A DNA stretch of 29,350 bases from Nostocaceae cyanobacterium (GTDB taxonomy: Bacteria; Cyanobacteriota; Cyanobacteriia; Cyanobacteriales; Nostocaceae): positions 1-29,350 of the forward strand of contig DATGXB010000239.1 of NCBI GenBank assembly GCA_035299225.1, in the 5' to 3' direction. Shown piece after piece: positions 4,384 through 18,337 of the stretch. The translations under genes were made by a program, and so were the position numbers. Numbering within the stretch: the first letter of the stretch is position 1; each line of letters opens with the position of its first letter. The notes beneath the pieces are model-generated. The model was not told the origin of the DNA, made no database searches, and worked only from the letters and a program-made list of their open reading frames with translations.

Positions 4384-4421
4384 CCGAAAAGTGAAATGTT
4401 TCCTTTACAAAACTACATACT
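4384..4421. repeat. 38-nt intergenic repeat, copy 2
   Basis: The sequence ccgaaaagtgaaatgtttcctttacaaaactacatact abuts the stop codon of the CHAT gene. Its partner is at 3635-3672. Confidence 0.8.
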
Positions 4422-7258
4422 CACCGCCACTCACCCTGAAGCACAAAAGCTGCCCAATAATAAGGAGAACTCCATTCTGGTATCTGGGACATCTCCACTT
4501 GTGCTTGTCTCAAAGCTGCCGCAGGTGTTAACTTTTCCTGCAACAAACCACGATAAAATCGCTTCATTAATTCTGCTGTTGCTTGGTCGTCAACTTTCCA
4601 CAAACTCACTAGCACTCGTGTTGCACCTGCATACATAAACCCCCGTGTTAGTCCTATAATTCCTTCTCCTTTCACGTCCTGACCTTGGCCTGTTTGACAC
4701 GCACTTAAAACAACTAATTCTGCTGGTAAATGCAAATTAAAAATATCACGCAGTCGCAAAAAACCATTTTGGGGTATTCCTTGTTCATCTACTAAGGACA
4801 TGACAACCCCTGATAATTCTGGACGTACAGTATTTAGGATGCCATGAGTTGCAAAATGAATAATACGATATTGGGCTAAATTTGGATTAGTTGCACTGGT
4901 TTTATTGGCTTGGAAATCAAAAAAGTGAATCCTTTCTGTATCAGGAACTAAAGCTATAATTGCCTCTGCTTCCTTGCGTGTTCCCAAAAGCCGTGTTAAG
5001 TTTATCCGTGCATCTCGAAGAGAATCTGTTAATTCTACTTCTGTAATTGGCACATTTTCTAAATTGGGTATAATGCTATTATTAGTATTACCTGTATTAT
5101 TTTTTAGTCGTCTATCATTTTTCCCAAATACTGGGTCTGCTAGTACAGCGATAGTTTTCGGTGCAATTTGTCTTCCTTTGATTTGATTTCTTAATACAGC
5201 TAATGTTGATGCTGAAGGTAAATTAATAATCTCATGGTGTGTAATTAATGGTAAAAAACCTTTTTGATGTTTTGTTTCGGGAATTACCAAGGCACTAAAA
5301 GGTATTGTTTGTAAGCTGCCATCAGCAATAATCACTAATCTTTTGTTTTCTAATTGTTTAGCGACAGGTTTAAGTAAAATTTGGCTGAGAGTCTCTACCG
5401 CTAAAATATCTTTTTCTGGGCGGATTCTAATGGGTACTAATTCTTGTTGGTGAAAGCGTTGTACAAGTTTGTCAATATCTATTTGTTTTGGTAATTCATA
5501 ACTATGAATACTGGTTTTTGTCACTGCCCAAAGATAACTATTTTCTTCTCCTAATGAATATTCTAAAAGTAGTGTATTGTCATCTAGTAAAGTTGATTGA
5601 ATTTCGGATAAAGTGAGGGGTTGAGGTTGAGTAATAGCAGCATAGCTAGGATTGTTTTGTTTAATCTCTGCTGTGATTTCTTCATATTGTTGATAAAGTT
5701 GGAAAAGTTCCATTTCTGAAGCCATGACTTGTTCTGATGTAGCCTGGCTATTTAGTAGTTCTACTTGACGTTTTTCTAGTGCATCAATTTGTTTACTAAT
5801 TATATTTTCTTGTTGTAATAATTCTTTGTTAACACTATTGCGAATATCTACTTTAGCTTCTGCGAGTAATTCTAAAAGACTGCGGGCGCGGGAACGTTCG
5901 CTGGAGTGAAATGCTTTTGCGTCATATCCGGCGGATGGATAATTTTGATGCAATCTCATTAATAAGTCTATATAAAACTTGTATTTATTCTGGGTTGTAG
6001 AAAAAACCGCAGTGCGAAGATTTGAGCTATAAATACTATTTCGTAAGTCCTCAGTGAGTTTAATAGAAACTTCCATTTTTATTAGGGCTGCGGTCAGATT
6101 GTTTTGCTGACTTTCGATTTGAGCAATGTTATAAAGGTTATTAGCTTGGGCGAGGCGATCGCCTGTGGTTTGGGTAATGGATAATGATTGATTTAAAGCG
6201 CGTAATGCCTGCTGGTGTTGATTGATGGAGTTGTATAATAAACCCATCTCTCCTAATACAATAGCTTCATCAACTTTGTCACCTAATTCTTGATAGATTG
6301 ATACTGATTGATGATAAAAATTTAAGGCTTTTTGTGGCTCATTAAATGATGAATAAATTTCACCAAAATGGCGATAAACTCTAGCTAATTCTGAGCGATT
6401 ACCTAATTCTTGATAGATATTCTGCGCTGTAATTAATGCGTTGATTGCTAGTTCTTTTTTGCCTAAATTCTTATATACTTGACTAATATAAATATAAGCT
6501 CTTGCTTCTCCAGATTTGTAACCTGCTTGCTTGGCAACTTCTATGGCTTGTTGGTAATAATTAAGGGCTTGTTCATTATTGCCTAAACCGTAATAACCCC
6601 AAGCTATTTGGACTAAAATATTAGATTCTCCAGTGGAGTTGCCTGCTTTTTGATAAACTTGCAAAGCTTGTTGATAGAACTCCATGCCTTTTTCTTTAGC
6701 ACCTAAAAAGAAATAGTGAATCCAGCCCATATCAGAATAAGTTGAAGCAACTCCAGCTAAATCACCAAGTTGCTGATAAAGTCGCTGTGCAGCCTCTAAA
6801 GAATCTAAAACTTTTTGCCTTTCTCCAAACAAGTTATGAAGCATACCTAAATCTTGTAAAGTTCTAGCTTGTAAGGGAACTTCACCTAATTCTGTAAAAA
6901 TTGTTAATGCTTGGTTATAGGATGATAATGCTGGTTCTACCTCTCCTAAGAATTGATAAATCTTACCAATTTTTCTCAAAATTATTGCTGATTGTAACCG
7001 GGCTTGTTTGCTAGAATTTTCACTAACTATTAAAATTTTCAAATACTTAAGTGCTTCTAAATATTTTTCAATTGCCTGTCGTTTTGATACTGCTGTTCCT
7101 TGCTGGAAAAGTTTTTCGGCTTCTGCCACAGCTTTTTCAACTGGATGATAATTAGTATTAGCTTGAGTAATTACTAGTTGTTGAGGAGTGGCAAATACTG
7201 ACGCAGGTAATAAGAAAATCGTAATAAATAAGGTTAGCCCCAAGTGTAAGGTTTTCAT
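4421..7258 (-). CDS. exported TPR-repeat protein with C-terminal CHAT (caspase-fold peptidase) domain
   Basis: The ATG at 7258 gives MKTLHLGLTLFITIFLLPASVFA/TPQ (signal peptide); the ORF extends to a TTG at 7282. About 400 aa of TPR-like repeats (Y..ALxxxxxxG) are followed by a coiled-coil region. The C-terminus carries the IIHFATHG and VVLSACQTG His/Cys motifs typical of CHAT domains. Confidence 0.9.
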   Translation of the reverse strand: MKTLHLGLTLFITIFLLPASVFATPQQLVITQANTNYHPVEKAVAEAEKLFQQGTAVSKRQAIEKYLEALKYLKILIVSENSSKQARLQSAIILRKIGKIYQFLGEVEPALSSYNQALTIFTELGEVPLQARTLQDLGMLHNLFGERQKVLDSLEAAQRLYQQLGDLAGVASTYSDMGWIHYFFLGAKEKGMEFYQQALQVYQKAGNSTGESNILVQIAWGYYGLGNNEQALNYYQQAIEVAKQAGYKSGEARAYIYISQVYKNLGKKELAINALITAQNIYQELGNRSELARVYRHFGEIYSSFNEPQKALNFYHQSVSIYQELGDKVDEAIVLGEMGLLYNSINQHQQALRALNQSLSITQTTGDRLAQANNLYNIAQIESQQNNLTAALIKMEVSIKLTEDLRNSIYSSNLRTAVFSTTQNKYKFYIDLLMRLHQNYPSAGYDAKAFHSSERSRARSLLELLAEAKVDIRNSVNKELLQQENIISKQIDALEKRQVELLNSQATSEQVMASEMELFQLYQQYEEITAEIKQNNPSYAAITQPQPLTLSEIQSTLLDDNTLLLEYSLGEENSYLWAVTKTSIHSYELPKQIDIDKLVQRFHQQELVPIRIRPEKDILAVETLSQILLKPVAKQLENKRLVIIADGSLQTIPFSALVIPETKHQKGFLPLITHHEIINLPSASTLAVLRNQIKGRQIAPKTIAVLADPVFGKNDRRLKNNTGNTNNSIIPNLENVPITEVELTDSLRDARINLTRLLGTRKEAEAIIALVPDTERIHFFDFQANKTSATNPNLAQYRIIHFATHGILNTVRPELSGVVMSLVDEQGIPQNGFLRLRDIFNLHLPAELVVLSACQTGQGQDVKGEGIIGLTRGFMYAGATRVLVSLWKVDDQATAELMKRFYRGLLQEKLTPAAALRQAQVEMSQIPEWSSPYYWAAFVLQGEWR

Positions 7259-7432
7259 ATTAAGAAATATTGAATAAAGCAATCTTGGTAAAAATTATCT
7301 CTTCAGTTTTAATTAACCACAGATAAGCACAGATAAATAATAAGTTTTTGCAAAGAATATAACATGACAATATTTAGGTGAGGGAAGGGGGTATTACTTC
7401 CGTAGTCACAGGGTGAGAATGGCAGAATGATG

Positions 7433-8131
7433 TTATCTGTGCGGGGGTATTGTTGATGAAGGGGTTGATGTAGTTGGGGGTTCTACTGTTTCTAAGGCAG
7501 CTAAATCATTTAACAAGCTATAAATAACATCTTTTTGTCCTAATCGTAGAGCTTCACCTAGTGCGTCATACCATAAGCCAGCAGCCGCTAAAATATTGAT
7601 ATTAGTACGACTATTACGGACAAGAAACACCCGTTTAGGCATTTTCACTACCTCTATTTCTGCCATTGCAAATAAATCATTAGCTGGTTGATTAGGGTTA
7701 CACAAAATGATGACTTGCCATAGATATCTTTTACCCACCTCCAAACCAGGTTTATTTTTAGGTAAGGTTAAAGTCATGATGCCATATTGACTTTGCATTT
7801 GCACCTGTTGTTGTATTTGAGGTTCACGGTTAAGATTGTATTTATACAGCCTAAATTCCATTGGTAAGGGTTTGGAGTCGGGAACAAACCAAGCAAAAGT
7901 AGGATGAGTAGAAGTAGTTTGCCCAACATGATTTTGAGGTGCTAGAAGTTGTAAAGATATTTCTCCGTTTGTTTCACATCCTCCCCTACCACCTGTAGTT
8001 GTTGTGCGAGTGGTGGGTGGACGTTGACCGCGTGGGGGTTTATATTCGGCTCTCGCAACAGTGGTTGAAGCTAAGATTAAGCTAGTAATACCAATAGTGA
8101 CTAGCTGGCAAAATTTATAGTTTTTTATCAT
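7433..8131 (-). CDS. exported DUF928-like protein
   Basis: Signal peptide MIKNYKFCQLVTIGITSLILASTTVARA/EYKPP. It has an Arg/Thr/Gly-rich segment (PPRGQRPPTTRTTTTGGRGGCE) and then HPTFAWFVP...EFRLY. This matches my memory of the DUF928 family found next to CHAT/CHASE2 genes in cyanobacteria, but I could not verify it by search. Confidence 0.65.
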   Translation of the reverse strand: MIKNYKFCQLVTIGITSLILASTTVARAEYKPPRGQRPPTTRTTTTGGRGGCETNGEISLQLLAPQNHVGQTTSTHPTFAWFVPDSKPLPMEFRLYKYNLNREPQIQQQVQMQSQYGIMTLTLPKNKPGLEVGKRYLWQVIILCNPNQPANDLFAMAEIEVVKMPKRVFLVRNSRTNINILAAAGLWYDALGEALRLGQKDVIYSLLNDLAALETVEPPTTSTPSSTIPPHR

Positions 8132-8290
8132 AATCTGGTTAAATTTTTAATTTCTAGATCAAGGGACGGACTTATATACAAATAAGTTCAGGCTTTTTTT
8201 GGGTATTTAATGGGTAAGTTAGGTAAGCGATCGCACTATCAGAATTTGGCAGTTTAATATTAAGCTAGAATTGGTTGTTATGTTGATTTT

Positions 8291-10162
8291 TTACTTTTGG
8301 CCAAACTTTGGTACAGGCCAGGTTAATTCACAAATTGTACCTTGAGTGGGTAAAGGCGATCGCCTAAATTTTCCTTTCAACTGTCGAGCTAAATTTTGAG
8401 CTTGTTGTGTTCCTCTCCCTTCTAACCCAAAGTCTACACTTTGCCCATTATCTGTAATTCTCAATGTATACCAGTCTTTTTGACAGGTACAGATAACATT
8501 TAAGCGAGTGACACCAATAGCATATTTCCCGACATTACACAAAGCTTCTTCTAAAAATCGGCATAATCCCCGCTTTTGCTCAATTGTTAAGTGCTGGGGT
8601 TCAATAGGTTCAAAACTGCGGACTTTGATTTTGAGGGTTTTAAAACAGGGAAAATCTCGCTCTAAGGTTTTAGTATAAACTTCATAAAGAAGCTCATGAA
8701 TTGGTGTTTTTAAATCAAATTCTATACTTTTTCCTAAATAAATACTCTCATTTTGAGTTAAGGTTTCCCACTTCATATACTCATAAACCGCCCGTAATTC
8801 TTGATTGAGGTGTTCCAATTGGGAAACGAGTTCAGAAGCTGGTAAATCCTCTTCTCTAGCGTTTCTGATCAGGTGGGAAAGAGTTTGTAATGGTCCGTTG
8901 TGAACGGTATCAAATGTATGTTCAATAATTTGTTGTCGTTCTTGAATTTGTAACTTCAAATTGCGGTCATATTGATAAAAAGCCGCTAAACCAATACCAT
9001 TAAAAACTAAACCGAATAAGGCTGGTATTACTGGTATCCACCAACCCCAAAATATGGATAAATAGCTAACTATAATCAGTCCAACACTAGCAACACTAAT
9101 GAGCAAAACATTCTTGCCAGGAGAGGAAATCAAGCGACTACAAATAATCCCGACTATGCCCCAAGTAAATATCCATAAATATTCCCAGCTATCTGCCCAA
9201 GTTTGCAAAAGGGGTCGTTTTTCTTGTACTGCACTGATAATCTGACTCACGGCATGAGCTTGAATTTCTACTCCATAAATTTGCCCAGGGCTAGGATTTT
9301 CAGAGGGAACAGCAGATGTATTAATAATATCTTTTGCACTAGGGGCAGTCATGCCAATAATCACAATGCGATCGCGCAACCAACTAGAATCAAATTCACC
9401 GCTTTTAATCTGCTTCAATGACAGGGTGCGAAATCGTGAGCGACCACTGCGGAAATTAATTAATGTTTGTAATCCGCCTGCATCAGCATTTACATATCCC
9501 CCAGAATTTGGTACAAAGCGGGGTAATTCAGTATTACCAAATCTCATTGTATCTAAATCTTTAATTCCATTATCCAGATTAATACCTTCCGGTGCTAAAT
9601 AAGCTTTAGCTAAAAGTATAGACAAAGAAAATCTGTATCCTTTATCAGTTTGTGTTGACAACAAACTGCGCCTTAAATGACTGTCTGCATCCAATATCCC
9701 ATCAGCAAAACCAACTTGTTCTGATGGTAATCCTGCTGGTGGTTCAATGGTATCTATGACAACTTTATCAATAGCAATTAGGTTTTTAAAACTGCCAAAT
9801 ACAGATAATAATTCATAATAACCAGGCTCAACAGGTAAATTTCTGATAATATCCAGACCAATAACTCTAGGTTTATGTGCTTGCAATTTAATCAACAATT
9901 CTGCTAAATCTATATCTGGTACTGGATGCCTACCTATACTTTCGAGGTCTTCTTCATTAATCCCAACAATTGTAATTCGTTCATCAATAGATTCTTCAGG
10001 ACGTAACCGCAGAAAGTTATCTAAAGCTTGCCATTCTAAGTATTGTAAATATCCAGTTAAACGGGTTAAGATGACCAAGCCAATCACGATAATTCCTGGT
10101 AGTATTTCTACTAGCCAATTAGCCATTACCGCTTTTATTTTTACCCCAGTTTTAGTTTTCAA
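8291..10162 (-). CDS. CHASE2-domain sensor histidine kinase (HisKA_3-type, NarL-partner class)
   Basis: An N-terminal TM helix precedes a CHASE2-like extracytoplasmic region (ITIVGINEEDL...HPVPDIDLAELLIKLQAHKPRVIGLDI). Three to four TM helices follow, then the H-box region HTFDTVHNGPLQTL and an ATPase-like C-terminus (ITDNGQS...GRGTQQ). The start is uncertain: TTG at 10162 or ATG at 10126. Confidence 0.85.
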   Translation of the reverse strand: MKTKTGVKIKAVMANWLVEILPGIIVIGLVILTRLTGYLQYLEWQALDNFLRLRPEESIDERITIVGINEEDLESIGRHPVPDIDLAELLIKLQAHKPRVIGLDIIRNLPVEPGYYELLSVFGSFKNLIAIDKVVIDTIEPPAGLPSEQVGFADGILDADSHLRRSLLSTQTDKGYRFSLSILLAKAYLAPEGINLDNGIKDLDTMRFGNTELPRFVPNSGGYVNADAGGLQTLINFRSGRSRFRTLSLKQIKSGEFDSSWLRDRIVIIGMTAPSAKDIINTSAVPSENPSPGQIYGVEIQAHAVSQIISAVQEKRPLLQTWADSWEYLWIFTWGIVGIICSRLISSPGKNVLLISVASVGLIIVSYLSIFWGWWIPVIPALFGLVFNGIGLAAFYQYDRNLKLQIQERQQIIEHTFDTVHNGPLQTLSHLIRNAREEDLPASELVSQLEHLNQELRAVYEYMKWETLTQNESIYLGKSIEFDLKTPIHELLYEVYTKTLERDFPCFKTLKIKVRSFEPIEPQHLTIEQKRGLCRFLEEALCNVGKYAIGVTRLNVICTCQKDWYTLRITDNGQSVDFGLEGRGTQQAQNLARQLKGKFRRSPLPTQGTICELTWPVPKFGQK

Positions 10163-10166
10163 CTTC

Positions 10167-10844
10167 TTAATCTATTAATCCTTCTTCTCTAGCTCTTTTT
10201 TCAGTTTGAATGCGAATATTTTTCCCTTCTTCGGGATAAACCCATAATACATCCTGTACTTTAGTCCAGTAGTGCCTTACCATCCGTTCAGATACGTGCA
10301 TCCGTTCAGCGATCGCTTTATCTTGTAATCCTTCTTCAAATGCTAAACTTAGTAGAGTCAGCCATTCTGGTTTTACTTCTAATCCAGCTTGTACAGCTTT
10401 AATGTCTCTTGTATAAGTCAGTCCCCGTAATGCCCAGTCAAGCCGGATTAATATTTCTTTACGAGCCAGACTTTTATCAGCAACAACAAATCCCCCTTTA
10501 TGAGAATCAATATTAGGTATAGTTCTAGCTAAAGCTTTAATGTAGGTACTTTGCACCATGAGATTAAGAGTAGGATAATTTTTCATTATGTTTTTTAACA
10601 ATTGAATACCTATTTCAGCTTTTGCAAATTCTCCAGCCTTTTCTGGGATAGAAAGATCCATAACCACAAGATCCGGTTTGACATTTTCTATTTGTTCAAT
10701 AGCTATCTGTGCCGTTTGTGCGGTAAAAATTGCACTTTCTGGATACTGCTGTTTTAATAAATTCAGTGTTCCATCTAGCAATAATTCATGATCATCAATT
10801 ACAACAAATCTTAGTTTAACTGGTTTTGGTAAATCTTGGTTCAT
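10167..10844 (-). CDS. response regulator, receiver + LuxR/NarL-type HTH
   Basis: Receiver motifs VVIDDHELL and DLVVMDLSIPE are present. The C-terminus has the HTH LQDKAIAERMHVSERMVRHYWTKV. I prefer the ATG at 10844 (MNQDLPKPVKLRF) over the TTG at 10877. The stop lies 4 nt upstream of the kinase ORF. Confidence 0.85.
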   Translation of the reverse strand: MNQDLPKPVKLRFVVIDDHELLLDGTLNLLKQQYPESAIFTAQTAQIAIEQIENVKPDLVVMDLSIPEKAGEFAKAEIGIQLLKNIMKNYPTLNLMVQSTYIKALARTIPNIDSHKGGFVVADKSLARKEILIRLDWALRGLTYTRDIKAVQAGLEVKPEWLTLLSLAFEEGLQDKAIAERMHVSERMVRHYWTKVQDVLWVYPEEGKNIRIQTEKRAREEGLID

Positions 10845-10895
10845 TGTCGGTTTATAAATAAATATTAAGGGGGACAAGTTGAAGCATTACAAATA

Positions 10896-13887: not shown

Positions 13888-14487
13888 ATGTCAACTTTAA
13901 CAAATGCTTTAGATAGGATTTTCAATTGGTTGCAAAACCACAAACCGGAATTTTCAACCAGTTTTTTACCAGGGTTAACTTTAGCAGAAATAGAAGAAAA
14001 ATTACAAGCTTTACCGTTTCGTCTACCTCAAGAAGTTTATGATTTATATCAGTGGCGAAATGGAATGCAAAATGATGAAATGATTTTTGTTTATCACTAT
14101 TTTTTAACTTTAGATCAAGCGATAGAGTTGGCGTTAATGTATCCTGATAATTATGGTTTAAATAGTGATTTCTTTAAACAACATCGCCAAGCAGAAGGCT
14201 ATCCAAGTTATGTTTTTCCTTTATTTGAATTTGAAGGAGAATATTTTGCTGTTGGTGCAAATACCACAGAGTTAGAAACTTATCCTGTATTTCATATTCA
14301 TCACGGTGAAACTTTCGCTTTTACCAGTTTAACTAATATGATTTTGACTATCGCCGAATGTTATGAAACAGGAGTTTATACAACTACACCTGATGGTGAT
14401 TTTGAATTAGATTATCAACAGTTTGGTGCTATTCGGCGTAAATATAATCCAGGTGCAGCAGAATTGATTTATGCTGATGAGAAATAG
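13888..14487 (+). CDS. SMI1/KNR4 (SUKH-1) family protein
   Basis: The N-terminal pattern LPGLTLAEIEEKLQALPFRLPQEVYDLYQWRNGM is typical of SMI1/KNR4 domains. The gene starts 9 nt after the Uma2 gene. Confidence 0.6.
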   Translation: MSTLTNALDRIFNWLQNHKPEFSTSFLPGLTLAEIEEKLQALPFRLPQEVYDLYQWRNGMQNDEMIFVYHYFLTLDQAIELALMYPDNYGLNSDFFKQHRQAEGYPSYVFPLFEFEGEYFAVGANTTELETYPVFHIHHGETFAFTSLTNMILTIAECYETGVYTTTPDGDFELDYQQFGAIRRKYNPGAAELIYADEK

Positions 14488-14523
14488 AGTAAAATTTGAT
14501 TTGCTCAATTTCCACCAACTTTT

Positions 14524-14581
14524 AACCTTTAAGGTAGAAGTTCCGAGCTTTAGGGTAGATCGTTCAACCTTTAAGGTAGAA
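14524..14581 (+). promoter_or_regulatory. three direct repeats CTTTARGGTAGA phased at exactly 21 bp
   Basis: The repeats are aacctttaaggtagaa (14524-14539), agctttagggtagat (14546-14560) and aacctttaaggtagaa (14566-14581). They lie 35-90 nt upstream of the predicted -35 box. Confidence 0.4.
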
Positions 14582-14614
14582 CAATATACCTTATCCCCCT
14601 CATCTCCTCAAGCT

Positions 14615-14643
14615 TTGACGACGGGAATAATTTACAGTATAAA
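14615..14643 (+). promoter_or_regulatory. sigma70-type promoter candidate TTGACG-N17-TATAAA
   Basis: TTGACG at 14615-14620, a 17-nt spacer and TATAAA at 14638-14643. A GGTGGGAG Shine-Dalgarno-like run lies just before the ATG at 14684. Confidence 0.5.
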
Positions 14644-14683
14644 GATATGCATCAAGCAAAATCAGATCGGGTGAGGTGGGAGC

Positions 14684-15082
14684 ATGGACCCTTTGAGTGC
14701 TGGAGCAGTAGCATTTTCAGCCTGGTTATTTAATAAAATCATTGACTGGACAGCCGAAAAAGCCTTAGATGCTGGTGCATCAGGTGTATTACAGTTAATC
14801 AAAAGCAAGTTACCGACGGCTAAAGTGGTGGAAATGGCTGCATTACCACCCAGTCAGCGAGAGGACATTGGGGAAGCGGTTTTAATTGAAGAGGTGAAAC
14901 AAGCAGCAGCGCAAGATGAAGAAGTGCGAAAAGCTGTAGAAGATTTAGGGAATGATGTTCAAGAAGCGGCAAAAACCAACCCTCAACTACAGGGAAGCTT
15001 CAACACTTATTATCAAAACTGTAAAGGCATTGTTGGCAGCAATACTTTTAACAACTCCACTATAAATATTACTAACAATTGA
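14684..15082 (+). CDS. helical N-terminal module of the downstream STAND NTPase (Bell/effector-like), ending at an in-frame TGA
   Basis: A good promoter and SD precede the ATG. The first helix is hydrophobic/amphipathic (MDPLSAGAVAFSAWLFNKIIDW), followed by an acidic helical region and an N/Q/G/S-rich tail. The frame is the same as that of the NB-ARC ORF. Confidence 0.6.
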   Translation: MDPLSAGAVAFSAWLFNKIIDWTAEKALDAGASGVLQLIKSKLPTAKVVEMAALPPSQREDIGEAVLIEEVKQAAAQDEEVRKAVEDLGNDVQEAAKTNPQLQGSFNTYYQNCKGIVGSNTFNNSTINITNN

Positions 15083-15181
15083 CTGGACTCGTCTGGACGG
15101 GGTACGGACAAAGTTAACACCCCCAGTAATTTTAGTTTTCCCGGTACTCCTCACTTTGTCGGTCGAGAGAGGGAGTTAGAA

Positions 15182-17488
15182 TTGCTGCATGAAAAATTAC
15201 AGACACCTGGCTCTGTGGCTATTTCCGCAGTCGCGGGGATGGGTGGAGTCGGGAAAACTGAGTTAGCAATCAAATACATTAAACTGCATCAAGACCAATA
15301 TCCAGGGGGGGTGTGTTGGTTTAATGCCAGAGAACAGAGTTTAGGGGTTGAAGTGGTGCAGTTTGCCCAGTTATACATGAATTTGCAAGTCCCGCAGCAG
15401 AACTTCCGAGGAGAACAGTTAAGTTTAACGGAACAGGTGGCTTGGTGTTGGCAACATTGGCAACCACCGCAAGGACTGGTATTAGTAATTTTAGATGATG
15501 TCACCGATCTAGAATATTGTCGAGATTTACTACCCCAAACCAACCGCTTTCGGGTGGTGATGACTACCAGACTACGCCATCTCGACACCAACATTGAGGA
15601 AATACCTCTAAATGTGCTATCTGAGGGAGAAGCATTACAGTTATTGACGGCTTTAGTGGGTGAGAAAGTCCAACGGGAAGCGGAAACAGCGAAAGAGTTG
15701 TGTAATTGGTTGGGATATTTGCCATTAGGTTTAGAATTGGTGGGACGGTATTTAGCCAAGAAACCCCGATGGACATTAGCCAAAATGTTAGAACGGCTAA
15801 AAGCCCAAACAGTAGAAGATGAAGCGCTGAACCCGGAACTGTTCAAGACTTTGAGTACAGCCCAAAGGGGAGTAAAAGCGGCTTTTGAGTTAAGTTGGCT
15901 AGAACTTGCACCCATAACCCAGCGAGTAGGGGAGTTATTGAGCCTGTTTGCTTTAAGTGTCTTTGCTTGGGAGTGGGTAGAAGCAGCGAGTAATTTACTG
16001 AGTTGGGCTGCTGAGGATGTGGAAACAGCCAACGAGCAACTTTATGAGCGCCATTTAATTAATCTTGGGGATGAGATAGGAGAGTATTGGCAAATACATC
16101 CTTTAATTCGGGAGTTTTTCGGGTTAAAGTTGCGGGAAAGAGAACAAGCGCAGGAAGTGAAAAAGGCTTTTGCTGCCGTGTTTGTGGAGATTGCTGAAAC
16201 TATTCCTGAGTCAATAACTCTAGAGGTTGTGAAGTCGGTAGAAAGGGCGATTCCCCATTTAGAAAGAGTGGCGGAAAATTTAATTGATGTTGTGAGTGAT
16301 GATAATTTAATTTGGGTATTTTCAGGTTTAGGTAAATTTTATCAAGGACAAGGATTTTATACGTCGGCAAAAACTTGGCTTGAGCAATTTGTGCCAGTTG
16401 TAGAAAAGCGTTTGGGACATGAACATCTTCATGTTTCTGTAAGTTATAGCAATTTAGCATCACTCTACAGAGATTATGGCAAGTATACGGAAGCTGAACT
16501 GTTCTCAGTTAAGGCATTACAACTAATTGAAAACCTACTAGGAAAAGAGAATCTCATTGCTGCTACCAGTTATAATAATTTAGCAGAAATCTACAAATCT
16601 CAAGGTAAATATAAGGAAGCTGAACCACTTTATATCAAAGCATTACAACTAAGAGAACACCTGCTGGGGCAAAAACATCATCATGTTGCTTTAAGTTACA
16701 ATAATTTGGCGGCGCTTTACGAATCCCAAGGTAAATACAAGGAAGCTGAACCACTTTATATCAAAGCATTACAAATGTTTGAATGCTTGCTAGGACAGAA
16801 ACATCCTGATGTTGCTACTGGTTACAATAATTTAGGACTACTCTATTATTTTCAAGGTAAATACAAAGAAGCTGAACAACTCTGTCTCAAAGCATTGCAA
16901 CTGAGAGAACTTTTATTAGGTCATGAACATCCTGATGTTGCTGACAGTTACGATAATTTAGCAGAACTTTACAAATACCAAGGTAAATACAAAGAAGCTG
17001 AACAATTCTGTTTCAAAGCATTGCAACTGAGAGAACTTTTATTGGGTCAGGAACATCCTAATATTGCTTTAAGTTACAACAATTTGGCATTAATCTACAA
17101 GCTACAAAACAAGTACAAGGAAGCTGAACCACTATATCTCCGAGCATTGCAACTGAAGGAACGCCTACTAGGAAATCAACATCCTGATGTTGCTTTAAGT
17201 TACAACAACTTGGCAGGGCTTTACGAATCTCAAGGCAGGTACAGGGAAGCTGAATCATTTTATCTTCAAGCATTGCAATTAAAGGAAAACTCTCTTGAAC
17301 AAGGACATCCTTCTATTGCTGCTAGTTACAGCAATTTGGCATTTCTCTACTCATTACAAGGCAGGTACACGGAAGCAGAACCACTTTTTGTCAAAGCTTT
17401 AGAAATTGCTGAACGCAGTTTAGGGGTAAATCATCCCAATACAAATGCTGTCCGTAACAATCTCCAACGGGTGCGCGAGATGTTGTAG
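15182..17488 (+). CDS. NB-ARC (AP-ATPase/STAND) NTPase with C-terminal TPR array
   Basis: Motifs present are Walker A GMGGVGKT, Walker B LVLVILDDV, MTTR and the GLPLA-like GYLPLGLELVG. About nine 42-aa TPR units follow (YNNLAxLYxSQGKYKEAEPLYxKALQL). The frame is open upstream to 15083 and there encodes the conserved PHFVGRERELELL, so the TTG at 15182 is not the ancestral start. Confidence 0.85.
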   Translation: MLHEKLQTPGSVAISAVAGMGGVGKTELAIKYIKLHQDQYPGGVCWFNAREQSLGVEVVQFAQLYMNLQVPQQNFRGEQLSLTEQVAWCWQHWQPPQGLVLVILDDVTDLEYCRDLLPQTNRFRVVMTTRLRHLDTNIEEIPLNVLSEGEALQLLTALVGEKVQREAETAKELCNWLGYLPLGLELVGRYLAKKPRWTLAKMLERLKAQTVEDEALNPELFKTLSTAQRGVKAAFELSWLELAPITQRVGELLSLFALSVFAWEWVEAASNLLSWAAEDVETANEQLYERHLINLGDEIGEYWQIHPLIREFFGLKLREREQAQEVKKAFAAVFVEIAETIPESITLEVVKSVERAIPHLERVAENLIDVVSDDNLIWVFSGLGKFYQGQGFYTSAKTWLEQFVPVVEKRLGHEHLHVSVSYSNLASLYRDYGKYTEAELFSVKALQLIENLLGKENLIAATSYNNLAEIYKSQGKYKEAEPLYIKALQLREHLLGQKHHHVALSYNNLAALYESQGKYKEAEPLYIKALQMFECLLGQKHPDVATGYNNLGLLYYFQGKYKEAEQLCLKALQLRELLLGHEHPDVADSYDNLAELYKYQGKYKEAEQFCFKALQLRELLLGQEHPNIALSYNNLALIYKLQNKYKEAEPLYLRALQLKERLLGNQHPDVALSYNNLAGLYESQGRYREAESFYLQALQLKENSLEQGHPSIAASYSNLAFLYSLQGRYTEAEPLFVKALEIAERSLGVNHPNTNAVRNNLQRVREML

Positions 17489-17597: not shown

Positions 17598-18014
17598 ATG
17601 TCAGCAAGAGATTTATTTCATCAAGCAGTAAGGATAGCTTTGGAAAAGGAAGGATGGTTAATTACTGATGATCCTTTAGAAATAGAATTAGATGATATTA
17701 CCCTAAAAATTAATTTGGGTGCAGAAAGATTAATTGCTGCGGAAAAGGCTGGAGAAAAAATTGCTGTAGAAATCAAAAGTTTTGCGAGTACCTCAGCAGT
17801 TAGTGAATTTCACACAGCGTTAGGTCAATTTCTCAACTATCAGATTGCATTAGAAGAAAATGAATCAGACCGCACATTATATCTAGCAGTACCAATTGAG
17901 CCTTATCGAGATTTTTTTCAGACTCGATTGGCTAAAATTGCTATACAAAGGCATAAAATAAAATTAATCACATACAATCCATTTACAGAGGTGATTGTAC
18001 AATGGCTGACATAG
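17598..18014 (+). CDS. xisH: XisH family protein
   Basis: The N-terminus MSARDLFHQAVRIALEKEGWLITDDPL...LGAERLIAAEK..KIAVEIKSF is characteristic of XisH. The gene overlaps the following xisI-like gene by 13 nt. Confidence 0.85.
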   Translation: MSARDLFHQAVRIALEKEGWLITDDPLEIELDDITLKINLGAERLIAAEKAGEKIAVEIKSFASTSAVSEFHTALGQFLNYQIALEENESDRTLYLAVPIEPYRDFFQTRLAKIAIQRHKIKLITYNPFTEVIVQWLT

Positions 18015-18337
18015 AATATTATCGCCAATGTATTGAAAGCATTTTAACTGAAAATAGTAGCTATAAACCCAAATATGAAGAGTTAGAAAAAGAATTGATT
18101 TTTGATCGTATACATGACCATTATCTATTAATGCGTGTAGGCTGGAATGGTTCAAACCGGATTTATCATACTGTGATGCACTTTGATATTAAAGACGGTA
18201 AAATCTGGATTCAAGAAAATAGGACTGATACAGATGTAGGTGAAGAGCTTGTAAAGATGGGAATACCAAAGGAGGATATTATCTTGGGTTTGCATCCACC
18301 ATACAAGCGCCCTTACACTGATTATGGTGTAGCGTAA
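18002..18337 (+). CDS. xisI: XisI family protein
   Basis: The sequence YRQCIESILTE...LIFDRIHDHYLLMRVGW...YHTVMHFDIKDGKIWIQENRTD is characteristic of XisI. The gene is paired with xisH. Confidence 0.85.
   Translation: MADIEYYRQCIESILTENSSYKPKYEELEKELIFDRIHDHYLLMRVGWNGSNRIYHTVMHFDIKDGKIWIQENRTDTDVGEELVKMGIPKEDIILGLHPPYKRPYTDYGVA

Follow-up and report, generated by a model that had tools for sequence, protein, structure and literature searches.

In a 29,350-nt stretch of DNA (the window) from a contig of a Nostocaceae metagenome-assembled genome (MAG), the open reading frame (ORF) for a small Bell-like protein lies in frame with that for an NB-ARC/TPR STAND NTPase (the NLR), and the two are separated by a single TGA stop codon that is followed by a conserved RNA hairpin. 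Comparison of related loci suggests that this gene is probably decoded by programmed UGA readthrough, by which one gene would give an abundant free effector-motif protein and a rare effector-motif-NLR fusion. Moreover, we lean towards the view that the UGA, together with its 8-nt spacer and the hairpin or pseudoknot, is a dedicated modular recoding cassette, by which filamentous and some other cyanobacteria would join death or effector modules (Bell-like, CHAT or hydrolase-like), at a low, set frequency, to sensors of the STAND/NLR or kinase type. The cassette family is widespread and conserved, and apparently undescribed; our literature searches, which combined readthrough with cyanobacteria, Nostoc, NB-ARC or NLR, yielded no relevant paper, and no Rfam family was found.

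In the window, the frame that begins at the ATG at 14684 encodes a protein of 132 aa up to the TGA at 15080-15082, and the same frame is open for 801 codons from 15083 to the TAA at 17486-17488. An earlier interpretation made from the letters of this DNA alone (the sequence-only reading) had described 14684-17488 as one frame broken only by this TGA with a C after it, and the sequence bears this out; the next codon is CTG. The part downstream of the TGA matches Pfam PF00931 (NB-ARC, E=2.9e-14, residues 29-246 counted from the TGA) and contains eight TPR_10 repeats (Pfam TPR_10, E=1e-102; TPR_12, E=5e-89). Thus, a P-loop-containing NB-ARC domain precedes a repeat sensor in the window protein, as is characteristic of NB-ARC/TPR STAND NTPases, and the NB-ARC and C-terminal TPR assignment made earlier is correct. 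The features of the gene are:

14684-15013, + strand: Bell-like N-terminal module, residues 1-110, with the hydrophobic helix MDPLSAGAVAFSAWLF followed by a predicted helical domain
15014-15079, + strand: short N/Q/G-rich C-terminal tail QNCKGIVGSNTFNNSTINITNN, a motif resembling bacterial amyloid signalling sequences (BASS-like), predicted to be disordered in the monomer
15080-15082, + strand: in-frame TGA, the proposed readthrough site, from conservation across loci
15083-15090, + strand: 8-nt spacer CTGGACTC from the stop codon to stem 1, from alignments A1 and A5
15083-15166, + strand: linker codons from the TGA to the NOD, with FVGR (15155-15166) at the end and no canonical start codon
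15091-15109, + strand: hairpin with stem 1 GTCTG (15091-15095)/CGGAC (15105-15109) and the 9-nt loop GACGGGGTA, from RNAalifold and covariation
15099-15123, + strand: tentative pseudoknot helix between loop GGGGT (15099-15103) and ACCCC (15119-15123), across the A-rich AAAGTTAAC (15110-15118)
15167-15820, + strand: NB-ARC nucleotide-binding domain, Pfam PF00931, with the P-loop GMGGVGKT at 15236-15259
15182-15184, + strand: TTG, a candidate restart codon inside the NB-ARC match, judged not to be the NLR start
16430-17488, + strand: TPR sensor array (eight TPR_10 repeats, Pfam) and the terminal TAA

We scanned one genome per species (185,579 species) for the reverse complement of TCGYCYGRWSGGR-N(1-2)-ACGGRYAAAG, a pattern that does not include the stop codon and for which ~2-4 chance matches were expected. 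The scan returned 100 matches in 99 stretches, almost all from cyanobacteria. TGA was present exactly 6 nt 5' of the pattern in 92 of 92 genuine copies, and TAA, TAG or a sense codon in none; the remaining eight matches comprised six non-cyanobacterial chance matches, one locus edge and one remnant. The carriers include the heterocystous Nostoc, Scytonema, Brasilonema, Tolypothrix, Calothrix, Fischerella, Komarekiella and others, as well as Microcystaceae, Prochloron, Xenococcaceae, Pseudanabaena, Phormidesmis, Leptolyngbyaceae and Oculatellaceae, and among them are complete genomes of cultured strains; cultured carriers include Nostoc linckia NIES-25, Nostoc sp. NIES-4103, Scytonema sp. HK-05 and NIES-4073, and Fischerella sp. 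PCC 9431. Around the TGA, these loci have an ORF of ~125-160 aa on the 5' side and, on the 3' side, an open frame 0 that leads into a STAND NTPase with its P-loop 47-60 codons past the TGA.

In a neighbour-joining tree built from 76 NOD sequences, the TGA did not change once, while the codon before it changed at least 40 times and the codon after it at least 23 times. The stop codons of long ORFs in the same loci are TAA in 142 cases, TGA in 80 and TAG in 69. A single G-to-A transition turns TGA into TAA, and that TAA never occurs at this position indicates selection for UGA specifically. The same in-frame TGA is present in 10 of the 25 closest metagenomic relatives of the NLR, which were retrieved by homology to the NOD protein alone. 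Accordingly, the alignment of orthologues at the stop position, proposed earlier as a check, gives a conserved TGA and no sense codon, and the stop between the two coding regions is kept as a stop across relatives.

An uninterrupted version of the junction was not found among the Bell-family clusters (373 in a word-indexed search, 985 in an exhaustive profile search). An apparent natural TGG (Trp) variant, P0253 at locus L190, was rejected: the DNA reads TGA, and the W stems from a gene call with code 4. In the public record, this contig was gene-called with a code in which TGA is Trp, which places Trp at the junction; the ORF continuity at L190 is strong enough to mislead automatic code choice. 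Similarly, the long Bell-family proteins P0251, P0285, P0296, P0298, P0386, P0257 and P0304 were rejected as uninterrupted junctions, and are TIR, GUN4-like or CHAT fusions, or deletion forms. In P0251, P0285, P0296 and P0298, a Bell-like module with tail is joined without a stop to TIR, GUN4-like or CHAT+TIR, and the linker of P0296, LKSSGGVPTKKSTPQ, resembles the post-TGA peptide of L117. Five loci look degenerate (L099, with TGA CTG TAG, and L097, L018, L071 and L108), having a second stop directly past the TGA, no recognisable upstream ORF, or one that is short or without ATG; these are probably decaying copies, useful as natural controls.

The first seven loci share the sequence TGA CTG SAG TCG YCY GRW SGG GAA CGG RYA AAG TTA AAT CCC CCA. 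In alignment A1 (93 sequences, TGA at columns 7-9), conservation is near complete from the TGA to +45 and drops on both sides. RNAalifold finds in A1 a 5-bp stem 1, columns 18-22 with 32-36, that begins 8 nt past the stop, and the length of this spacer is invariant in alignments A1 and A5. Pair 19:35, the sole stem pair unconstrained by the search pattern, is C:G in 60 sequences, U:A in 30, U·G in 3 and C·A in none, compared with ~19 C·A expected under independence, and this pair changed state at least 16 times on the tree. Because the pattern constrained the other stem pairs, covariation was retested on the 17 loci of alignment A5, which were retrieved by protein homology only. In A5, 98.8% of the stem-1 cells are paired, and compensatory changes are present at two pairs (19:35, UA 11 and CG 6; 21:33, CG 9, GC 3, UA 3 and UG 2). 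None of 500 shuffles reached the observed covariation, and sliding the 3' partner lowered pairing to at most 52%. In divergent metagenomic copies, the 8-nt spacer and the 5+8+5 layout persist with different stems, namely GUCGG/CCGAC, GUCUG/CAGAC and GCCUG/CAGGU. In total, these observations demonstrate that the TGA is followed at fixed spacing by a conserved, covarying stem 1. A covariance model built from A1 (R1) matches every locus with the in-frame TGA (TGA-type) and, at E<1, no locus in which the NLR has its own ATG (ATG-type).

Tentatively, GGGA in the loop could also pair with a UCCC further 3', and this second helix would give a compact pseudoknot of the H type whose 9-nt connecting loop is A-rich. 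In A1, where the 3' strand of this helix lies outside the search pattern, 97% of the cells are paired in a fixed register, varying only by C<->U (GC<->GU), and one A:U pair is switched to U:A in the window lineage and in L054. The C-run of the helix also encodes Pro. We grade the pseudoknot as tentative because a register-free shuffle test was not significant. An Rfam search (E-value threshold) over 14600-15400 returned noise only. Three other functions of the element were considered and rejected: an intrinsic terminator (no U-tract, and none found in a scan), TadA-type A-to-I editing of the UGA (no UACG loop context), and a Shine-Dalgarno-like role of the G-rich loop (no suitably spaced start codon). 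The sequence-only reading contained neither the conserved RNA element of ~45 nt, nor the wide spread of the arrangement, nor the fact that both the NB-ARC match and FVGR begin upstream of the TTG at 15182.

Frame 0 past the TGA is open in 87 of 90 loci, and stops occur in frame +1 in 89 loci and in frame +2 in 83. In the window and in L001, a locus syntenic with the window (PEP-mutase, Uma2, small gene, NLR), a +1 insertion (GGGGTACGG) is offset by a -1 deletion 17 nt later, and the block CGGACAAAGTTAA is read as G-T-D-K-V-N in these two loci and as E-R-T-K-L-T elsewhere. Since the same nucleotides are read in another frame in the window and L001, the constraint acts on the nucleotides; since the two indels compensate, the reading frame across the block also matters.

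This constrained frame has no initiation site of its own. The 33 codons at 15083-15181 lack ATG, as had been noted, and also lack GTG and TTG, so that no such codon precedes the TTG at 15182 in the window. This TTG lies five codons inside the Pfam NB-ARC match, and it is unconserved: L001 has its TTG one codon further on, and L003 offers as its first candidate an ATG 14 aa ahead of the P-loop. The codon after the TGA (80 loci) is CTA in 47, CTG in 24 and, in the other nine, CTC, CTT, ATA, ATC, AAG, GAA or CCG; CTA is not an initiator codon. Among 67 loci with FVGR, 31 have no ATG, GTG or TTG before it, and in the other 36 the only candidate is a Leu or Val codon (TTG or GTG, 3-8 codons before FVGR) inside a conserved peptide. 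The first ATG past the TGA is usually that of the Met in the P-loop GMGGVGKT.

Public annotation reflects this gap. The NLR part has 1837 relatives at E<1e-20, in heterocystous cyanobacteria, and their annotated N-termini are scattered widely, many at the Met of GMGGVGKT. Five relatives are annotated from M[QEH]S[SP][ED]RER, which corresponds to gene calls at a CTG or GTG directly past the TGA; in all five, the TGA closes an ORF of 139-146 aa in the same frame and without Pfam match. Public NLR models are inconsistent (L001 5814; L007, L008 and L010 at 3001; L009 at 284; proteins P0005-P0124), and many are tagged 'partial' despite not adjoining contig ends.

The relatives of the NLR fall into two architectures. 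In L001 and L003, the NLR is in frame with a small ORF, with a single TGA between them that is followed by CTG/CTA GAG TCG, and there is no canonical start before FVGR. Among the 25 closest metagenomic relatives, fetched with the NOD region alone, 10 are TGA-type: their in-frame TGA precedes FVGR by 26-31 codons, a Bell-like ORF lies on the 5' side, and no ATG occurs in between. All 10 have the hairpin. The other 15 have their own ATG and an N-terminal extension, and the hairpin is present in none. L191 has the canonical two-gene form, in which the Bell gene ends with ENWKGINIKGGNSTINNPNFNF and a TAA and the NLR starts in another frame at an ATG of its own and carries its own ENWNGINIKGGNPVINI; the linker in L191 retains CAGTCTGAACGGGCAAAGTTAAATCC, a remnant without the 5' half of the stem. 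In L116, a second two-gene example, there is likewise a TAA stop, another frame, an own ATG with a tail copy, and no hairpin. Two-gene relatives thus exist, but without TGA and hairpin, and the observation expected to overturn the single-frame interpretation, i.e. relatives consisting of two genes with independent starts and a non-conserved linker, was not made for the TGA-type architecture. From this comparison of sequences, the TGA with its hairpin takes the place of the duplicated tail motif, a swap that makes sense only if some ribosomes continue and so give the NLR the upstream tail.

The cassette is modular on both sides. The upstream position of the Bell-like module is taken by a CHAT domain in L012 and by a hydrolase-like module in L067; downstream, we found NACHT with transmembrane segments (L027, L066 and L092) and NB-ARC/APAF1_C (L046, which L089 resembles by sequence only). 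In L036 (Fischerella sp. PCC 9431), the TGA and hairpin are followed by a protein kinase domain instead of a STAND NTPase. Copies on mobile DNA include L046, on plasmid pHT582-1, and L008 (Nostoc flagelliforme), with a relaxase gene upstream.

The upstream proteins form a family with the consensus MEPxxLTAxAIA followed by a predicted helical domain, and nearly all members of the clusters mentioned above have 125-160 aa; the 132-aa protein itself has three relatives only, all short, in the word-indexed search. Bell domains are described as helical bundles of 120-140 aa that have a hydrophobic helix at the N-terminus and an acidic residue at position 2-3, as enriched in Nostocaceae, and as adjoining NLR genes (bioRxiv 10.1101/2020.01.06.895854). 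The window module has the hydrophobic N-terminal helix and an acidic residue at position 2, and it is adjacent to and colinear with an NB-ARC/NACHT-type gene carrying TPR or WD repeats, here NB-ARC with TPR. Searches of the 132-aa protein against Pfam, PADLOC and NCBIfam gave no match, and neither a profile search of the PDB nor Foldseek with a low-confidence AlphaFold2 model gave a credible match; that model is all-helical (pLDDT 57; tail ~31). Since no profile or structure matched, the Bell assignment stays descriptive.

The C-terminal tails of the upstream proteins fall into several N/Q/G-rich classes. One of these, ENWQGINIKGGTNTISGNTFNF, which the window tail resembles, is present before the TGA in other loci and also at the N-terminus of ATG-type NLRs. 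The NLR segment of the window has neither a second tail copy nor a start. Hence, the window does not belong to the two-gene Bell/BASS/NLR class as defined, yet it may act alike through a fusion.

Based on these findings, we suggest the following mechanism. Most ribosomes would stop at the UGA at 15080-15082 and release the 132-aa protein, a Bell-like, probably membrane-targeting helical module with a short amyloid-type (BASS-like) tail. A minority would decode the UGA, most simply with near-cognate tRNA-Trp, and termination would be weakened by the UGA-C context together with the hairpin, possibly an H-type pseudoknot, positioned 8 nt past the stop at the mRNA entry channel. UGA is the leakiest bacterial stop codon, and UGA-C is reported to be a weak termination context in E. 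coli. Ribosomes that read on would cross the start-less linker into the NB-ARC/TPR part and give a rare Bell-tail-NLR fusion of ~105 kDa, whose junction peptide in the window would be GIVGSNTFNNSTINITNN-X-LDSSGR. By analogy with the two-gene Bell/BASS/NLR systems, triggering of the TPR sensor would cause the NLR to oligomerise and the fusion tails to cluster; the clustered tails might then nucleate a fold that templates the abundant free effector, and the cell would be killed or arrested. Readthrough efficiency would set the effector:sensor ratio and, because both proteins would use the same motif DNA, the pair could not drift apart.

Several points weigh against this proposal. All support for readthrough is comparative, to our knowledge there is no precedent for structure-stimulated readthrough of a chromosomal bacterial gene, and the bacterial release factor 2 (RF2) differs from eRF1. 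Only descriptive features speak for the assignment of the upstream module as Bell-like. With 5 bp, the hairpin is short, and covariation was partly measured on sequences whose stem positions were mostly forced by the search pattern, a caveat eased by the free pair 19:35 and the protein-retrieved set. As a single sequence, 15080-15135 of the window folds no better than shuffles (z=0.58), and its minimum free energy structure favours a GGGG/CCCC helix over stem 1; the evidence for the hairpin is therefore comparative and not thermodynamic. Finally, the pseudoknot helix is 82% paired, with a shifting register, in the protein-retrieved set, and the register-free shuffle test of this helix did not reach significance.

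Among the alternative explanations, the existence of two separate proteins, with the NLR started at a downstream TTG, GTG or ATG or by termination-reinitiation and the hairpin acting as a coupling or regulatory element, is unlikely. In the window, GGGAG is present 6 nt 5' of the TTG at 15182, the site at which the sequence-only reading had considered a restart, 36 of the 67 loci with FVGR have the TTG or GTG described above, and the published Bell/NLR gene pairs are normally close together or overlapping. However, start candidates are conserved neither in position nor in presence, the 31 other loci have none before FVGR, the first ATG is that of the P-loop, and the stop is mostly adjoined by the non-initiator CTA. 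Moreover, a start at TTG 15182 would truncate the NB-ARC match and exclude FVGR, and two separate proteins would leave unexplained both the requirement for TGA and the maintenance of frame 0 by the +1/-1 indel pair; nor do the TGA-type NLRs have the tail motif of their own that two-gene systems need. A fresh nonsense change in an intact Bell-NLR fusion gene, or a sequencing or assembly error, was also considered from the letters alone, and a single stop in a 934-codon open frame in a MAG does look like this. We regard this explanation as refuted by the comparison of loci: the same TGA is invariant at the same position in ~100 independent assemblies, complete genomes of cultured strains included, the flanking codons vary, the Bell-family clusters contain no uninterrupted junction, and we see neither a sporadic, lineage-specific disruption nor relaxed constraint downstream. 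By contrast, the third option raised at that stage, readthrough yielding much free module and little full-length NLR, is the one favoured by the comparative data, and the conserved hairpin, which had not been anticipated, points the same way.

Dedicated decoding of the UGA, either as selenocysteine (Sec) with a hairpin resembling a selenocysteine insertion sequence or by an opal-suppressor tRNA, e.g. from the accessory tRNA arrays of heterocystous cyanobacteria, is improbable. A UGA with a close conserved hairpin and a conserved G-rich loop is also the signature of bacterial Sec, the exclusive use of UGA fits, and readthrough in Anabaena, where lacZ nonsense reporters are functional in strain PCC 7120, rises on de-repression of the accessory tRNA operon (PMC10272220), an effect that suggests a possible stress link for readthrough. 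Nevertheless, Cys or any other sense codon was found at the UGA position in 0 of >100 copies, the site is an inter-domain linker with no redox centre, the loop begins only 13 nt past the UGA, and the window contains no tRNA gene. Furthermore, surveyed cyanobacteria are described as lacking the Sec-decoding trait (PMC1273633), and PMC5029168 mentions cyanobacteria only as carriers of orphan SelD. In the absence of Cys homologues and of a redox context at the UGA, selenocysteine at the junction is unlikely. Very improbable is a role of the ~45-nt block at the level of DNA, as a recombination, cassette-exchange or protein-binding site, in which case the TGA would be incidental and the NLR silent until rearranged. 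Conservation of the block far exceeds that of the coding sequence to its left and right, the block joins many types of upstream and downstream modules, and copies are present on a plasmid (L046) and beside a relaxase gene (L008), but compensatory base changes preserve the stem and not the sequence, and both frame 0 and protein-level conservation continue across the block into FVGR. Neither a flanking repeat nor a recombinase accompanies the block consistently, and homology-driven shuffling may be a by-product of a conserved RNA element.

Stop codon readthrough with a 3' stimulatory structure is textbook knowledge for retroviruses and other viruses; for chromosomal bacterial genes, we know of essentially no description of such readthrough apart from selenocysteine. 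If programmed readthrough is correct, the cassette would be the first signal for programmed stop-codon readthrough in cellular bacterial genes that is stimulated by an RNA structure. With it, a two-gene amyloid-signalling immune pair would become a single gene, in which executioner and sensor have an identical templating motif, and the dangerous sensor would be kept rare and the executioner abundant. A large share of the closest relatives (10/25) would then be effector-NLR fusions throttled at the ribosome, and NLR starts called at arbitrary internal codons or at the CTG past the stop, or as 'partial', would represent a systematic annotation error. With ~100 or more natural examples, built-in covariation and hairpin-less ATG-type paralogues as natural negative controls, the question is directly testable. 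Being compact and portable, the cassette is also a candidate tool with which protein ratios could be set in cyanobacteria.

The expression signals upstream of the gene are:

14615-14643, + strand: putative promoter-like TTGACG-N17-TATAAA, 5' of the small ORF, from sequence
14670-14686, + strand: Shine-Dalgarno-like GGTGAGGTGGGAG and the ATG start of the proposed recoded gene, from sequence

The hexamers of the promoter that had been proposed earlier are present, and both they and their 17-nt spacing are kept in L001, where the spacer sequence differs; however, a promoter consensus scan gave no call at this site because the -10 hexamer has no T at position 6. The ATG in L001 is likewise preceded by GGGTGAGGTGGG(G/A). 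A 19-nt direct repeat, TT(T/C)AACCTTTAAGGTAGAA, is present in two copies (14521-14539 and 14563-14581, 42 nt apart), with a degenerate copy near 14547-14559, just 5' of the promoter-like site and inside a small ORF (14471-14674). The repeats are absent from the matching region of L001 and could be an operator or an insertion scar. Between the Uma2 and Bell-like genes, 13888-14487 encodes a SUKH-1 (SMI1_KNR4) immunity-type protein. Since L001 runs directly from Uma2 to the Bell-like gene, the SUKH-1 gene and the repeat region look like an insertion. Directly 3' of the NLR stop, an XisH/XisI gene pair is present at 17598-18337, overlapping by 13 nt. On the minus strand, 4421-10877 encodes a CHAT-TPR protein (952 aa), DUF928, a CHASE2 sensor and a response-regulator-like protein, and this cluster is another conflict or signalling-type module. 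DUF928 is also a neighbour of the two-gene Bell/NLR locus L191.

Several known systems resemble the cassette in part. Bacterial selenoprotein genes likewise have a UGA followed by a close conserved hairpin within the coding sequence; unlike them, the cassette has no Cys homologues, a non-catalytic position in a linker and a different geometry, and the Sec trait is unreported in surveyed cyanobacteria. In phage Q-beta, UGA readthrough in bacterial translation gives A1, a minor C-terminally extended product that is needed in addition to the major one (PMC13517186), although in the context UGA-A, with no defined 3' structure of such a kind, and in a phage gene instead of a cellular family. Among verified viral readthrough signals (PMC13517186), that of Moloney murine leukaemia virus (MoMLV) has an 8-nt spacer with stem 1 from nucleotide 9, and type II signals have the context UGA CUA. 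The type II UGA-CUA(G) signals of viruses and mammals (Sindbis virus, O'nyong-nyong virus (ONNV) and Plautia stali intestine virus (PSIV); OPRL1 and others) have their counterpart in UGA CUA in 47 of 80 loci and UGA CUG in 24 of 80, the window having UGA CUG; unlike the cassette in its bacterial host, the eukaryotic context effect works via eRF1 and 18S rRNA. As in MoMLV gag-pol, an in-frame stop in the cassette would separate an abundant N-terminal product from a rare fusion, and it is followed by an 8-nt spacer, stem 1 at nucleotide 9 and a compact GC-rich structure that may include a second helix and has a connecting loop rich in A, in an RNA element that would itself be translated. Unlike in MoMLV, the stop is UGA and not UAG, the host is bacterial (RF2, 70S ribosomes), the stem has 5 bp, the pseudoknot is tentative, and the cassette lies in a chromosomal cellular gene, where it is known from sequence comparison.

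The closest parallels in gene content are the two-gene Bell/BASS/NLR pairs of filamentous bacteria (Dyrka et al., bioRxiv 10.1101/2020.01.06.895854) and, in E. coli, the Bab/Agp antiphage system (bioRxiv 10.1101/2024.11.07.622273), which share with the window a Bell-like protein of ~130 aa that has a hydrophobic N-terminal helix and a short C-terminal motif. As in the Bell/BASS/NLR pairs, which are from Nostocaceae, this ORF lies directly 5' of and colinear with an NB-ARC/TPR gene, and one tail class is common to both architectures. Because the published screen needed motif pairs in annotated proteins, it would miss the TGA-type form. Unlike in the two-gene pairs, the NLR in the window has neither a shared motif nor a start at its N-terminus, and is in frame with the Bell-like ORF, parted from it only by the TGA and the hairpin.

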